From an uncultured Pseudomonadota bacterium (GTDB lineage Bacteria > Oederibacteriota > Muellerivitia > Muellerivitales > Muellerivitaceae): a stretch of 64,000 nt of DNA. Below are positions 45,501-51,500 of this stretch, piece by piece. Location: positions 64,001-128,000 of the forward strand of contig CAWJKT010000015.1 in NCBI GenBank assembly GCA_963843375.1, read 5' to 3'. How positions within the stretch are numbered: position 1 is the stretch's first letter; each line of letters opens with the position of its first letter. Position numbers: made by a program.

Positions 45501-48500
45501 AATGGTTTGGAAGTGGCAGAAGCTTGGGGGGGAGGAGGCCCGATGGTGGTTTTTGTAACGGCTTATAGTGAGCATGCTTTGAAGGCCTTTGAACTTTCGG
45601 CGTTGGATTATTTGGTAAAACCCGTTTCCACGGAAAGGCTGACCGAAACAATTGAACGGATAAGAAAAAGAAAAAATCCAACCCCATTGGGGAACATTCA
45701 GAAGTTTCTTGAGAAATTGGAAGAGGGAAGAGTGAAACGGCGAATGGCGGTCAAATGTGGGGCTAAGTACCGTGTTTTCGACCCAGCCCAAGTTTCAGCC
45801 GTGATCGCACGGGATCATTACGCTGTTATTTTGCTGGAAGGGCAAGAACTTTTGGCGGATGACAGTCTAGATACTTTGGCTCAAAGGCTGGACTCCGGAC
45901 GTTTCTTGCGGATTCACCGCAGCGCCATTATCAATCTGGATTTTCTTAAAGAATTGGAACACGAAGGCGACCGAAAATATCTGGCGATTTTATCTGACGC
46001 AGTCAAAACACGTTTGCCTGTCAGCCGAGAACGATTGGACGAATTGAAAAAAGTATTGAACTTGGATTGAAGACGATGAAACACACTTTTTGTTACATGT
46101 GGGGAAATTGTTCTGGAGTGAGCCCGGTTTTTTATTATGGTTATAACGTTTTCTGGCCATTTTTTAAAAGGATTAATGAATGTGGTTTTCCAACATATAC
46201 TTCTATGCAATAACCACAATTAAAAGCCTCCGGCTATTATTCGCTTTTTTTCTGCTGGTTTTGACGGCTAAGGGACTTGAGGCTCAAACAGCGGGTGTAA
46301 CAAATTCTTCGGGTTCCGTAACGGCAATTCAAAGCGCTTCGGCCCCTGCTACCGATTTGTCCGTTAGTCCACAGGAAGAAATCCAAATTTTGGACGCTAT
46401 CGAGGCCCAATCGAATACCATTTCGGCTGGTTCTACTGCCCAAGGAACCACGGTTTCCACAAATAACCAAGGCCAATCCATTGCGGGCCTTAACTCCAAT
46501 TCTTCTTCAGTTTCGGTTTCTTCTCCGACTCCTATTGCGATGAGTTATGCTCCGCCATCCGAACCCACGGGATTGAGTTTCTTGATTCTGAAAGAAGGCA
46601 TTTATCTCTCTTGGGCGGCAGCTTCGGCTAATTCAGCTGTCACGGCATATAATGTTTTCCGTTCCACAACCCCTGGGTTTGGATATAAAAAGGTTAATCT
46701 AACGCCATTGACTGCGCCTTATTTTCTGGATGGCGCCCAAAACAGCCTTTCACCCCCCCATAATGGGGAAGACTATTTTTACGTCATTACTTCCAACGAT
46801 TCCCAAGGCAATATCAGTCCTTATTCCGACGAAATAGCGGTAACGCCCGAAGGCATGGAGATACCTGAAACGGAGGAGGAAAAAGAGGCTCGGAAACCCA
46901 AATCGAAGCCAACGCCCGAGGCTGAAAAGGTTCTTAATATACCGGATAAAATTAATATACAACTTCCTGCCGACACCTCACTTGCCATTCAGGGATACAA
47001 AAAAGTAGACATCCTTATGGCTTTCCAGGATTTCGACCGCCCAGCAATCAATGGAGTTTTACCGGAAGTGAACACGACCACCGTCAATCAAGAATTAGTC
47101 GTGACTTTGCAGGGAAAAGTGGGGAAAAACGTCGACGTGAACGTTGATTACAGCGATGTCAACCGGGCAGGGGGCGTGGACCAGACTAAGCAGGATATTT
47201 CTATCAAGTACCACGGGGACACAGATAGCGCTATCCAGGAGGTGGACTTCGGAGATCTACAACTTGTATTGCCTAACACGGAATTTGCGGGTTTCAGCAA
47301 AGAGTTGTTCGGCCTCGAGGCCAAAGTCAAAGTCGACCAACTCAACCTGACCACCTTTTTCGCTCAAACAAAGGGTATCTCTGAAACGAAAGTCTTCCAG
47401 GGGAACGCTACCCAAAACGACATGTATATCCAGGATATAAGTTATGTTCCTTATAAATACTTCCTAATGACTCGAGATTACAAGGCCTATACCGATCCGA
47501 CGTCAGGACAAACGGTAAATGGGGCCGGGCCGCAAAATAGCACGGAACAGATTTGGGTGGACCCGGGAACCGGAGTGATTAATCCTCTTGGACCCAATTT
47601 CAATGGGCTTTTCGAGCATTGGCTACCGGGCCGGGATTACACGGTTGATTATTCAACCGGTATTATTACCTTCATTCGAGGGTTATCCCAATCCTCCCGG
47701 ATCGCGGTATGTTTCCAAAGAAAATATGACGGGGCTTACATCGGGTTTGCCCCTGGTTCTACCACAACCATTGATCTCTCAAGCGCCAGTTTGTATGTGC
47801 CGGATGATGGAATTGTGGGAAGGATTCCCCCGCCACCAATTGATCCTGGAAAAACGGTTGAGGGACATTTAATTAAAGATAACAACAACAGTACAGGAGG
47901 AACCTCCGCTACAGCTGTCGCCCTGAGCCCCAACTATCTGGTGAATTACTTTAATTTGGGAACCAACAAAATCACTCCCCCTCAAGAGGATCCCAATTTC
48001 ATGTTCCAAGTCATTTCTCAGGGCACCAATAACGTCTTACAAACGGGACAAGGGGTCACGGCAGTGGGGGCCACTAATCCCTGGGTATACACCGTGAATT
48101 TGGATTTTAACTATCTGACGGTCACTAATTCGAACTTTTACATAGCCCCTGGAACCATTCCCCCGGTGCCGAATGCTGCCACCTCCTTCCTTTGGCCTGA
48201 ACGGCCTTTCGCCAATTTGGATACGACCGGCGGTTCCAGTTCAAGCAACACCCCCACGGACGTTTATGACCAGACCACAAGTCCAACCAGCCTCTATTCG
48301 ATTCACATCCGATATAAAACCCAATTAAATTTCTACCAGATGGGTCGCTTCAATATCATTCGTGGAAGCGAGTCGGTTTATCTCGACGGTCGCAAACTGC
48401 AAAGAGACGTGGATTACACTTTCGATTACACCTCGGGATTTCTGGATTTTGTCAACAAGAGCATCCTGACGCCCGCCAGTCAGGTTGTCGTTACCTATGA

Positions 48501-51500
48501 ATACGCTCCCTTTGGTACTTTCAGCGCCGATAACATCCTAGGAGCCCGGGCCGAATATGACGTTAACGACCATTTTTTTATTGGGTCCACTTTTCTGGAA
48601 AGTGACGCTCAACAACCTATTGATGTCCCGCAAATCGGTTCCACACCTGATTCCCTAACTCTCTTCGATGCGGATGCGAAATTAGATCTTTTGTCGGAGG
48701 ATGTTCAATCTATTACCGGCATTATTCCGGGTTTGGAAAGCTGGAAGCCGCCTCTGACCATCAAACTATCCGGAGAAATCGCCCAAAGTTTTTACAATCC
48801 CGATACTTTCAGCGCGGAAGGAGAAAACGGCGTGGCGATGGTGGATAACATGGAAGGCATCGACAGCGTTTCGGGACCATCCATGAATCAAACAAGCTGG
48901 TTGGTCTCATCTGCGCCACAGCCTGTTTTCACGTTCCTCCCGGGTTTGGTACCGGTTGCAGCTTCGGGTCCAAGCAATAACCGAACCCGGTTTTATAACG
49001 CGGGCGACGTCTAATCCCACCATGACCATTTTCCAGACGATTGGGACCACAAATGCGGTTGGCGGCACATATCAAAATTTCCCGAGTGTTCCTGCCTACG
49101 GGGGAGAAACCTACGCCAATACCCAGCAGGCGAACGACGCGGTCGCTGTTCTCCAATTTCCCTATACGAATTTAACCAACCAGAAGTGGGCCGGTCTGAG
49201 GTCGGTCATTTCCGCCAATGGAACCGATTATTCGAACGTCACCTTTTTGCAATCTTGGATTTATAACGACGGCAATCCGAAATGGGTCATGGTGGATTTT
49301 GGGGTGATTAATGAGGATTCAAATGGTAATGGGGTGTTGGATTTTGATCCGGGAATGACGGCGGTTCCGCAAGTTGCGGCTAATCCGAATTATGGAATTC
49401 CCACATTTTATTTTCAGGGTAACCCTTGGACCGGAAGCGATACAACGCCATTCGCTTCTCTTTTTGGGGGTGAGACCACTTCACAAGAGGGAGTCAGCGT
49501 TGGAAACGGCACCAGTTATGTGACGGAAAACATGGATGGCACTGGAATATTAAACACCAGCGATGCTTACTATGAATATGGTTTCCAAGTCAATTGGACA
49601 GGTTGGAAACAAGTAAAGGTACCTGTGAGTTACACCTCGGCAGACAATATGACCACCACTCCGGACGGGACCACTTATTTTTTCCATACGCAGGGCTCTG
49701 CCAATCCGACCATTATCCGATCGGTGAGGGTTTGGACCACGGGGGAAAGTTCAACCCCGATCAGCGGCGATTTTTACATGCAAAATATCAGTTTCAGCCA
49801 CAACCTTTGGGTGTTGTCCGTGGACCCGACGGTAAATGCAAATGAGGGCATCACCGTTAATACCTCGAAGTTCGACGTGAATTCCATCAGCCAGAACCAG
49901 AATTCGAATTACGTACCCACTTTGCGTTTCATTACCGTTCAGGCGGGTCAGGACCAATCGGCCCTTCTATACCAGGAAAAATCTTTGGAGCTCACTTATA
50001 ACCTATCCAATGCGGATATTTATAACGGCCTTCCCGCTTATTACGCCACCCGGAGTTTCAATCCGGGGCTGGATTTCACCAATTACGATGATATCCGGAT
50101 GGATCTTTACATGCTTTCTTACCAGCCCGGGGAAGTCCTCTTCGTCAGGATCGGGAACGACCAAGCGGACTATTACCAATACAACATACAATTGGATGCT
50201 GCGGCCGTCAGTTGTTTGGACAATTGGGGGACCGTTGACCTGCCTATAAATGGTTCGGGAGGAAACCGGCTACAGGTGGGAACACCTTACATTAACCGCG
50301 CCACCCAAGTCAGCTTTGGTATTCTTTCACCAAACGCCCCCGCGGCGGGGCACACGGGGGATCTTTGGATCAACAACCTCAGGGTCGCTAATGCCAACGT
50401 GCGAAGCGGTGTTGCCAGGCGTGTTGATGCGGCTTTTGTTTTTGGAAAAAACTTTGCCACCATCAATACCCGTTATCGGGAAGTGGACTCGGGTTTCACC
50501 GAAATCGACCAAACCTCCACCCACTTCCAGCATTCCACCCAATGGGGCGCGGATTTTACATCAAGCGGCGTAACCCTATTTTCCCAACCTTTGGTCACCC
50601 AAGCCTCGCTCACCAGGCAGGACCTCTATACCGAGGCCGCCTTACTGGACAACCCTTACTATATTAATCTTCCGGATAGCCTTATTGACAATTTCACCGG
50701 AAGCATCAGTTACACCAAAGATCTCGGCCCCAGTTTAGGGAGATTGACCGCCGTGCGTCTTTCCGGAAGCACCAACTATGAGACGGATGTCTATGAGGAA
50801 GCCTATCTCAGCCAGCCAGGTGTGCAGGGCAATACACAAAAGGGAGAGGCAATCGAAACCTTGGCCTCCACCTATGACGCTCCGAAAAAATTATTTTTTA
50901 TCTCCTTGGGTGCGAACCAATTCACGGAAAGCTACAGTTTAACCCACGATACCCAGGAATTTGATAACACCTCCTTTGCTCCTTATGACCGGCTTACCCG
51001 GTCTCAAAATTATTCATGGACGAACACCACGGAATTGTTGAAAAATCTCGTCTTTACCCCCGGTTATACTTTGACCTTGGTGGACGCGACGGGAAATACC
51101 AATTCACCCGGCGTTCCCGGCAGTGTTCTCGGGCTATACCCCTTTCAATCAGCGGTACCAGCCCAAGTTGGGTTTGGTTTATCGGGGCATACCGGGAATG
51201 ATTCCCGCGGTGGATTTTACCGGTAGCAACCAGTACGATTATGTTTCCTATCCGGACGGAACCCGGTTCAACAACGCCAATAACCTGAATTATTCCCTCA
51301 ACCTGACGCCGGGCAGCTGGTTTTCCTTGTTCCAGAAAATGAACCTGACGATATTTGGCGGGATCACCGAAAGCGGTACAGCCGCTATTCCGGATATTGC
51401 CAGGATCAGCACCCCTGAATTTTCGGCATCGATGGTCTGACCAGCCCTGTATTGCCCCTCAATGGTTTTAACCCTTTTGACTTGCCTTAACCGGCAACCA

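Follow-up and report, generated by a model that had tools for sequence, protein, structure and literature searches.

A diverged SprA/Sov homologue beside lptFG points to a type-IX-like export route with no detectable known motor in a phylum outside Bacteroidota

The outer-membrane translocon of F. johnsoniae, known as a SprA-PorV-Plug/PPI complex (PDB 6H3I/6H3J and the 8GL* entries), is built around SprA, a single giant beta-barrel of 36 strands, and in Bacteroidota type-B cargo comes with cognate PorP/SprF-like partner genes (SprB-SprF). P. gingivalis has a type IX secretion system (T9SS) that comprises, in the available portions of three papers (PMC12635249, PMC12365241, PMC8754138), a PorLM motor, a PorKN ring, the Sov pore and a PorU/V/Q/Z attachment complex, with energisation by PorLM and a track of disulfide-linked PorK; its cargo is attached to A-LPS according to the accessible part of PMC12704123. 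Reviews and surveys, including PMC12635249, describe the T9SS in the sections available as a PorLM/GldLM-driven system restricted to Bacteroidota or the FCB group, and an excerpt of PMC4793230 counts it in 60 of 97 genomes of Bacteroidetes and gives no other clade that has it. In Fibrobacter succinogenes, the basic terminal domain of cellulases has been reinterpreted as a T9SS C-terminal domain (CTD) (Raut et al. 2019, PMC6851124); the main text of that paper, the part available to us, makes no mention of SprA, PorV, GldM or PorM.

The window analyzed here is a stretch of 64,000 nt of contig CAWJKT010000015.1 (C15; contig position 64,001 is window position 1) from an uncultured soil bacterium (genome G000), whose phylum lies outside Bacteroidota and has records labelled FCPU426, Goldiibacteriota and Firestonebacteria. 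A preliminary description had assigned a SprA homologue to positions 46180-51440, but tblastn with the intact 2028-aa orthologue of a same-genus genome (G054) carried the gene on to about 52221 (Table 1). The matching segments lie at 46180-49005 (82% identity), 48992-51196 (80%), 51108-51407 (87%), 51412-52221 and 51635-52087, and the reading frame runs 1, 2, 3, 1, 2, 1, with changes near 49005, 51108-51196, 51410, 51635 and 52087. The SprA model TIGR04189 matched C15:112283-112921 (E 7.5e-35) and C15:110969-111487 (E 6.5e-21) in contig coordinates; the N-terminal piece (residues 1-944) scored 198.3 bits, and the unbroken G054 orthologue scored 226.6 bits, above the curated cut-off of 200. With phmmer, the 944-aa piece matched F. 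johnsoniae SprA (6H3I/6H3J) at E 2.7e-15. The two TIGR04189 matches, the 6H3I match and the G054 score all repeated the values first given. A profile of 28 family sequences reached 6H3I at E 7.5e-51 in three stretches, the best of which pairs profile positions 550-1333 with chain residues 417-1403 and leaves the C-terminal ~700 residues outside. As judged from these matches, the identity of the gene as a SprA/Sov homologue is confirmed.

Table 1. Features of the sprA neighbourhood, in window coordinates
Feature	Position	Strand	Evidence
skp, lpxD, lpxC, fabZ, lpxA, lpxI (outer-membrane biogenesis)	36831..41385	+	Pfam OmpH, LpxD/Hexapep, LpxC, FabA, Acetyltransf_11/Hexapep, LpxI
lptG/lptF pair, 362 and 386 aa, divergent from sprA	41429..43678	-	Pfam LptF_LptG, 280.9 and 264.9 bits
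LytS-type histidine kinase, directly upstream of LytTR regulator	44038-45324	+	Pfam His_kinase/HATPase_c
LytTR response regulator, directly upstream of sprA	45321-46070	+	Pfam Response_reg/LytTR
sprA/sov homologue, ~2030 codons	46180..52221	+	tblastn with G054 orthologue, TIGR04189, PDB match
Error-rich assembly stretch holding most frame breaks of sprA and the next gene	50358..53700	.	Contigs of runs X1-X4 differ from window
FN3-repeat protein ending in T9SS type-A-like CTD; orthologue of 1545-aa G054 gene	52347..57039	+	tblastn, fn3 match

Contigs of four public runs (X1-X4, from three studies) agree with the window from 46180 to ~50400, apart from one gap per contig at ~49007, which is seen in each of the three listed contigs that cross there (X1, X2, X3). 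From ~50400 to 53700 all four runs depart from the window identically at the places listed: one piece of 2447 bases (50358-52804) differs by 167 substitutions and 22 gaps, and 12 of the listed indels fall within 52432-53328, 9 of them in 4 of 4 runs, with 26 further indels. The FN3-repeat gene that follows sprA is broken up to ~53621 and intact from 53626. Because the contigs of four runs contradict the window at those places, the frameshifts in sprA, five or more in number, are assembly artefacts and the gene is intact in nature, which bears out the earlier account of a gene split by the assembly. At least five frame changes, with more in the next gene, could also be read as the decay of a pseudogene in an organism whose system is dead, but we regard this as highly improbable: the short-read contigs do not show these indels at the places listed, the window's genes for GAPDH (57254-58328) and TPI (60987-61740) are each broken into two ORFs as well, and the intact parts of sprA remain 80-87% identical to the G054 protein.

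Across the phylum, TIGR04189 matched 92 of 99 genomes, as had been claimed, and 58 of the 60 high-quality ones among them, in single frames of ~1700-2330 aa. Only 7 of the 99 pass the cut-off, and by this measure the SprA of the phylum is therefore a diverged branch of the TIGR04189 family. No TIGR04189 match was found in G090 (99% complete, 13 CTD matches) or G026 (91%, 34 CTD matches), where the gene may lie in an assembly gap or SprA may be dispensable. The system resembles that of F. johnsoniae in its homologous giant outer-membrane protein, its putative PorV-family barrels and its type-A CTD cargo, whereas it differs in the length of SprA (about 1700-2250 aa, against 2403 aa in F. johnsoniae), in the FN3 repeats at the N terminus of this family, in the lack of GldKLMN matches, in the position of sprA beside lptFG and in the large number of its PorV-like paralogues, of which half stand in a pair with a cargo gene. 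With P. gingivalis it has in common the Sov/SprA pore, a PorV-like carrier, the CTD signal and a link to LPS (there through A-LPS attachment, in the accessible part of PMC12704123), but no counterpart of the PorK track or of PorLM was detectable here, and no PorU sortase in 4 of 5 genomes.

In G000, 22 places exceed the TIGR04183 (type-A CTD) cut-off, with matches in 0 of 14 control genomes, and our own HMM recovers 79-84 CTD-ending frames among 11157, in keeping with the 76 genes and 5 ORFs counted before. Examples include a CBM9+PA14+Por_Secre_tail protein and a subtilase with FlgD_ig/CHU_C, and one cargo protein reaches 31.5 bits with Pfam Por_Secre_tail. We count about 22 PorV-like barrels in this genome, where 15 PorV/PorQ-family members had been proposed. 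With the PorV model NF033710, G000 gives 14 matches and four relatives give 19-42, none of which reaches the cut-off of 250 bits (best 98), and Pfam PorV exceeds its cut-off of 27 bits for two G000 proteins (29.9 and 32.9). Eleven of the 22 PorV-like frames stand directly behind a CTD frame, where 0.4 would be expected and 200 random draws gave a maximum of 3. This order, a cargo gene and then its own outer-membrane partner gene, is that of the SprB-SprF pairs of Bacteroidota, but the tag here is type-A-like and the partner PorV/FadL-like; PorP/SprF was not detected with TIGR03519 (at most 32 bits). As in Fibrobacter succinogenes, T9SS-type CTDs occur on polysaccharide-degrading enzymes outside Bacteroidota, and compared with the case in the available text of PMC6851124 the present one spans whole phyla and takes in machinery.

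We lean, with modest confidence, towards reading the locus as the outer-membrane translocon, intact in nature, of a type-IX-like export route in reduced form. Cargo proteins, which carry a Sec signal and end in a type-A-like Ig domain (the CTD), would reach the periplasm. There a PorV/FadL-like barrel, often the product of the gene that directly follows that of the cargo, would bind the CTD, after which the cargo would pass the outer membrane by way of the ~2000-aa SprA barrel. Pore, carriers and tag would thus work together without a GldLM/PorLM motor, a GldKN/PorKN ring, the PorU sortase or a PorP/SprF partner. No dedicated motor would be needed, since release might be driven by binding to the carrier or to LPS or by extracellular folding, and the lptFG link would reflect a coupling of export to LPS delivery.

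The searches for a known motor were negative. GldM (TIGR03517) and GldL (TIGR03513) exceeded their cut-offs in 0 of 99 phylum genomes; at the domain level GldM_1st (PF12081) was found in 0 of 45 genomes and GldL_N (PF22827) in 0 of 8, a model that matched nothing anywhere in the runs. The GldN model was equally silent throughout and found nothing in 5 genomes, and no control genome matched for GldM, GldL_N or GldN. The reported lack of detectable GldL, GldM and GldN was thus reproduced. GldM likewise gave no match in the 61 Elusimicrobiota genomes sampled, in runs where it had no match anywhere. GldK reached its cut-off in 0 of 5 genomes, with partial matches only (best 86 versus 350 bits; none in G054, G032 and G074), and the PorU model NF033707 matched only by its CTD end in G000, G054, G074 and G094, with a single match to its middle (positions 587-773, 49 bits) in G032. 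The earlier reading of a "motor-less T9SS variant" is thus partly supported: the searches bear out a T9SS-like system without a known motor, whereas "motor-less" itself we infer from negative HMM searches that had no working positive control in these runs. A very diverged or non-homologous energiser, be it shared Tol/TonB or an unrecognised inner-membrane complex, might then power SprA, although we think this unlikely. SprA is itself only just recognisable, at ~0.1 bit for each of the 2319 positions of TIGR04189 (226.6 bits in all), and a GldL or GldN that had diverged as far could lie at the edge of what the models detect; each genome holds 4-7 MotA/ExbB homologues; and a TolQ-TolR-TonB_C cluster in G000 also includes a TPR protein with a partial PorW/SprE match (114.6 bits versus a cut-off of 250) and a 614-aa protein that belongs to no known family. 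Nevertheless four different proteins, GldK, L, M and N, would all have had to escape the searches in 99 genomes, also at domain level, and no MotA/ExbB gene lies in the fetched flanks of sprA at 41 phylum and 8 Elusimicrobiota loci. In G000, all six MotA/ExbB genes stand in familiar surroundings (one flagellar, one Tol-like, four beside TonB-dependent receptors), a gene context that assigns ordinary jobs to these motors.

Export of CTD cargo as the main task of SprA must also be weighed against a mainly housekeeping function in LPS export or envelope biogenesis, with CTD export secondary or separate. SprA is near-universal not only in this phylum but, as a new finding of this analysis, in Elusimicrobiota (58 of 61 genomes, those of 1.1-1.5 Mb included); 16 of these 58, small genomes, have no TIGR04183 match, also a new observation, so that SprA there has another role or uses another signal. 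Equally new is the sprA-lptFG synteny in both phyla: within the fetched flanks lptFG occurs at 21 of 41 phylum loci (as immediate neighbour at 8), and sprA adjoins it in 5 of 7 + 1 loci of a second set. In Elusimicrobiota it does so in 6 of 8 loci, and the order lptF-lptG-sprA-comF is co-directional in 3 of the 8. The adjacency described earlier thus holds in part, but not its frequency of 9 in 11 genomes. Of 10 genomes tested, 8 have no lptFG pair other than this one (in G000 the sole other LptF/G-family match is a single gene beside an LptD-like gene on contig C3), and at least one LPS gene is present at 34 of 41 loci, with skp-lpxD-lpxC-fabZ-lpxA-lpxI alongside in the window. Near-universality in Elusimicrobiota, the lptFG synteny and the 16 CTD-less genomes together turn a housekeeping role in the envelope into a serious alternative, if one to which we assign a rather low probability. 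Because G000 encodes a separate LptD-like protein (705 aa, LptD_N domain, C3:32429-34546), SprA is not needed as an LPS translocon; its homology is to a protein translocon, and synteny can mean co-regulation only. Moreover, CTD presence is nested in SprA presence, since all 42 CTD-positive Elusimicrobiota genomes have SprA and the 3 SprA-negative ones are without CTD (hypergeometric probability 0.027, relatedness ignored).

Whole phyla with pore, carriers and tag but without motor or ring genes would amount to a natural experiment that could reveal the purpose of the motor, the make-up of a minimal translocon and the origin of the T9SS, and because Elusimicrobiota include cultured species the question is testable at the bench. 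Such an export route would further account for the way in which these little-studied bacteria, apparently degraders of polysaccharide and protein, put enzymes on or outside the cell. We tentatively add a broader proposal, possible rather than probable, in which SprA, PorV-like carriers and the CTD tag would form an ancient motor-free export route that is common to this phylum, Elusimicrobiota and at least one Aerophobota MAG and is genomically tied to LptFG. Bacteroidota would have gained the GldKLMN motor and track later, by co-option along with gliding, and SprA in small CTD-less genomes would have been kept for envelope or LPS biogenesis.

An FN3/CTD-type gene follows sprA in 29 of 41 loci, and the C terminus of the one in the window (56797-57024) scores 21.9 bits on TIGR04183 and also aligns with the PorZ model at its CTD end. 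The LytS/LytTR pair lies upstream of sprA in close relatives only (5 of 41 loci: L011, L018, L019, L020 and L056).

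The 944-aa piece of the sprA-like gene in the window scored 198.3 bits (E 1.4e-58) on the NCBIfam SprA/Sov model TIGR04189, which has a cut-off of 200, and matched the F. johnsoniae SprA structures 6H3I/6H3J at E 2.7e-15; the 2028-aa orthologue in the same-genus genome G054 reached 226.6 bits. These scores and the 6H3I match bear out the preliminary description of the gene as a SprA/Sov homologue, and a genome-wide search returned exactly the two TIGR04189 matches reported there. An alignment of 28 full-length phylum orthologues (A1, mean column identity 30%) yielded a profile that matched 6H3I at E 7.5e-51, with the best stretch pairing profile positions 550–1333 with chain residues 417–1403, and that also matched FN3 domains at positions 25–330, indicating N-terminal FN3 repeats in this SprA family. 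A SprA match was found in 92 of 99 phylum genomes (58 of the 60 high-quality ones), with just 7 of the 99 passing the TIGR04189 cut-off; judged from sequence, the phylum proteins form a diverged branch within the SprA family. Pfam gave no match on the SprA proteins, phmmer with full-length G054 SprA gave none in the PDB, and a cluster look-up of full-length SprA returned no public names. Two genomes, G090 and G026, have matches to the C-terminal type-A-like T9SS secretion tag (CTD) yet no SprA match, which may reflect an assembly gap or a true loss.

The window gene is divided among several open frames, tabulated below. The G054 genome, 99% complete in 5 contigs, carries the orthologue as a single frame, and tblastn with this protein runs through frames 1, 2, 3, 1, 2, 1 along the window, with 80–87% identity over the first three pieces, and carries the gene ~780 bases beyond 51440, where it had previously been taken to end. 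The gene downstream of sprA (52347–57039) is likewise interrupted several times.

Open frames and overall extent of sprA and the adjoining downstream frames (window positions)
Feature	Position	Strand	Basis
sprA piece 1	46180–49014	+	open frame, 944 aa
sprA piece 2	48956–51226	+	open frame, 756 aa
sprA piece 3	51123–51440	+	open frame, 105 aa
Run of short frames	after 51440, up to 53608	+	open frames
1137-aa frame	53626–57039	+	open frame
sprA, full extent	46180 to ~52221	+	tblastn of the G054 2028-aa orthologue on the window

We aligned contigs of four public sequencing runs (X1–X4) from three studies to window positions 46180–53700; the runs are not all independent, as one may be the sample from which the window was assembled. 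From 46180 to ~50400 the run contigs are identical to the window and gapless, save for a single gap near ~49007 that is present in each of the three listed crossing contigs (X1, X2 and X3) and coincides with the first frame change. Between ~50400 and 53700 all of them deviate from the window identically at the listed places. One 2447-base run piece differs from it by 167 letters and 22 gaps, and nine of the twelve indels listed between 52432 and 53328 are shared by all four runs, with at least 26 further indels. Because the run contigs contradict the window at the break places, the earlier attribution of the split to assembly frameshifts holds; we read sprA as intact in nature and the breaks as assembly errors, and we rejected a pseudogene on the run contigs, which lack the breaks at the listed places. 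Genes for GAPDH (57254–58328) and triose-phosphate isomerase (60987–61740) each appear in the window as two overlapping ORFs, which points to indel errors outside the sprA stretch of the assembly as well.

The curated type-A CTD model TIGR04183 matched 26 places in the source genome (G000) at E ≤ 1e-3, 22 of them above cut-off, and matched 0 of 14 control genomes. An iterated HMM of our own, seeded with these 22 places and run on stop-to-stop frames of at least 100 aa, found that 79 to 84 of 11157 G000 frames terminate in a CTD, close to the 76+5 inventoried previously. Matches to the PorV model NF033710 numbered 14 in G000 and between 19 and 42 in each of four near-complete relatives; every one fell under cut-off (best 98 of 250 bits). 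Two G000 proteins lay above the cut-off of the Pfam PorV model. A PorV HMM built from the G000 matches grew from 22 to 37 to 62 members over iterations, and because the later rounds drift we used iteration 0 alone, giving 22 PorV-like frames in G000. Eleven of these 22 begin directly after a same-strand frame that ends in a CTD, where 0.4 such pairs would be expected by chance and the maximum in 200 random draws was 3. Among eight paired cargo proteins scanned, one combines CBM9, PA14 and Por_Secre_tail, another is a subtilase with FlgD_ig/CHU_C, and others are FN3-rich. In G000 a 669-aa stop-to-stop frame (C6:201447–203453; locus L108 1948–3954, minus strand) unusually joins Flg_bbr_C and sigma-70 regions 2 and 4 to a FlgD_ig domain at the C terminus, possibly several genes merged through assembly indels.

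We compared ~20 kb around sprA from 41 phylum genomes after clustering the neighbour proteins. A large same-strand FN3-repeat protein with a weak FlgD_ig-type C terminus follows sprA in 29 of 41 loci, and at least one LPS gene, LpxI, LpxA and LpxC-FabZ among them, lies within 34. The lptF-lptG pair is present in 21 loci and is the immediate upstream neighbour of sprA in 8; in one clade of 12 loci, genes for an O-antigen ligase and a GT9 heptosyltransferase lie a short distance upstream, and in others a nearby gene encodes a PMT_2 glycosyltransferase, a GT4 or a PAP2 protein. The order in the window is skp-lpxD-lpxC-fabZ-lpxA-lpxI, then lptG and lptF on the opposite strand, a LytS/LytTR two-component pair (found here in 5 of 41 loci, close relatives only) and sprA. 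Two frames ~80 bases apart at 38440–39787 encode LpxC (271 aa) and FabZ (150 aa), and in related loci LpxC and FabA-like domains share one frame (cluster c22); either a fused lpxC-fabZ is broken in the window or the difference is real. In a single clade (loci L027, L029, L030, L031, L036, L039, L043, L045, L047, L051 and L054) a conserved 220-aa protein with only a weak DUF3108-like match (cluster c5) is encoded just upstream of sprA, behind an O-antigen ligase and a GT9 heptosyltransferase, with a chemoreceptor gene between them in some loci.

Of 10 genomes tested, 8 have no LptF/G pair other than the lptFG adjoining sprA, on which ground we rejected a second LptFG dedicated to SprA. Both G000 and G054 carry one more LptF/G-family gene, a lone third copy beside an LptD-like protein. 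In G000 this copy (412 aa) immediately precedes the 705-aa LptD-like gene, the two together spanning C3:31195–34546 (locus L115 7195–10547), with PorV-like barrels a few kb to either side. The Pfam LptD model found nothing in 5 genomes and matched only 2 of 14 controls; LptD_N picks out the 705-aa G000 outer-membrane protein and, in G054, a frame of 719 aa, and with LptD-like proteins present in both genomes we discarded the idea of SprA as an LptD substitute.

A scan with the conserved SprA core (alignment A2) returned 38 loci and reached no Bacteroidota genome. Labels among them include candidate division FCPU426, Candidatus Goldiibacteriota and Candidatus Firestonebacteria, names that between them seem to cover this GTDB phylum, as well as Elusimicrobiota (7), Candidatus Aerophobetes (1), and Deltaproteobacteria and Clostridia (two MAGs). 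Five of the 7 Elusimicrobiota loci, and the Deltaproteobacteria-labelled one as well, have lptG-lptF immediately adjacent to sprA in divergent orientation. In a sample of 61 Elusimicrobiota genomes, for which a completeness of 90% or more was requested, we found SprA in 58 at E ≤ 1e-12, as frames of 1701–1905 aa and one of 1411; this threshold was used because a stricter E of 1e-18 gave just 15 of 61 and missed G103, an Endomicrobium-labelled genome. The CTD model (E ≤ 1e-4) matched 42 of the 61 and GldM (E ≤ 1e-3) none. SprA is present in every one of the 42 CTD-positive genomes, and the 3 SprA-negative ones have no CTD match (hypergeometric probability 0.027, relatedness ignored), and 16 SprA-positive genomes of 1.3–1.8 Mb are without a CTD match. 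Among eight further Elusimicrobiota loci, lptFG adjoins sprA in six, three of them co-directional as lptF-lptG-sprA-comF-like; the ComF-like gene follows sprA in seven, and the FN3/CTD gene is found in 0 of 8. This ComF-like gene (double zinc ribbon and phosphoribosyltransferase domain) occurs after sprA or the FN3/CTD gene in both phyla (L116–L120, L122, L123 and 17 phylum loci). The mfd-surA-pdxA genes next to one Elusimicrobiota sprA include no lptD. Upstream of sprA in G103 lies a 1788-aa autotransporter with Chlamydia PMP repeats (locus L121 11643–17006, minus strand).

Searches for the remaining T9SS components reproduce the reported lack of GldL and GldM matches. Above cut-off, GldM (TIGR03517; best E 0.0125) and GldL (TIGR03513; best 20 bits, off the N-terminal GldL_N-matching positions) were each found in 0 of 99 phylum genomes, with no Bacteroidota genome at hand as a positive control; the GldL model is one that also matches 9 of 14 controls. 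The first GldM domain (PF12081) was found in none of 45 genomes, all but one of which have a completeness of 96% or more, and the N-terminal part of GldL (PF22827) in none of 8 genomes of 96–100% completeness. GldK (TIGR03525) gave partial matches alone (86 of 350 bits, G000 and G094 only), and PorP/SprF (TIGR03519) at most 32 bits. The PorU model (NF033707) was matched only at its CTD end, bar one match in the relative G032 at model positions 587–773. GldN (TIGR03523) was found in 0 of 5 genomes with a model that matched nothing anywhere. As a rough yardstick of sensitivity, SprA retains ~0.1 bit per model position; with SprA-like divergence GldL or GldN would score ~25 bits, at the detection limit, and GldM and GldK should still be visible.

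The most economical explanation, to which we give a little better than even credence, would be a reduced type-IX-like route that operates without a GldLM/GldKN-type machine. Cargo would be exported by Sec, a PorV-like barrel, often one whose gene accompanies that of the cargo, would capture the CTD, and the protein would then pass through SprA with no machine of that type. An energiser invisible to these searches might instead drive SprA; we regard this as unlikely. SprA might also be mainly a housekeeping protein linked to LPS export, as its near-universal presence, its synteny with what is mostly the genome's only lptFG pair and its retention in genomes without CTD cargo would suggest; the nesting of CTD within SprA-positive genomes and the pairing of PorV-like frames with cargo point to the reduced secretion route, and we consider a mainly housekeeping role similarly doubtful. 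By gene content, the T9SS-like pattern without the known motor is reproducible, and wider than the preliminary description had it.

This distribution should interest researchers on T9SS and on outer-membrane biogenesis. Published abstracts call T9SS specific to Bacteroidota or the FCB superphylum, and the survey of Abby et al. 2016 (PMC4793230) detected the system in 60 of 97 Bacteroidetes genomes and in none of the other clades. Energisation via a disulfide-linked GldK/PorK track is the subject of Liu et al. 2025 (PMC12635249). F. succinogenes cellulases have been proposed to bear T9SS CTDs by Raut et al. 2019 (PMC6851124), whose main text has no mention of SprA, PorV, GldM or PorM. Doud et al. 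2019 (PMC7031533) assign a Goldbacteria cell that binds cellulose to the FCPU426 16S cluster, the parts of the article consulted leaving secretion machinery undiscussed. Literature searches on FCPU426, Firestonebacteria, Elusimicrobia and FCB-related candidate phyla turned up no article about SprA or a motor-free T9SS in these groups, with subscription journals, supplements and taxonomic listings of domain databases outside the scope.

MotA/ExbB-family genes number six in G000, as do Plug-domain receptors; in the four relatives the counts are 4–7 and 2–7, respectively. One of the six MotA/ExbB-family genes is flagellar MotA, amid FliM, FliL, MotB, FliJ and FliI; the second belongs to a TolQ-TolR-TonB_C cluster that also encodes a YbgF-like TPR protein; the third stands in a receptor-ExbB-TonB row, and the other three are each at most 4 kb from a Plug-domain receptor. 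No MotA/ExbB-family gene is close to sprA in any locus examined, and with all six G000 genes in flagellar, Tol-like or TonB-receptor settings we rejected a spare 5:2 motor for SprA. The Tol-like cluster (C10:211500–220500, locus L112) encodes, in order, a TPR protein, a 614-aa protein that belongs to no known family, TolQ, TolR and a TonB_C protein; the TPR protein is 672 aa long and has YbgF, BamD and partial PorW/SprE matches.
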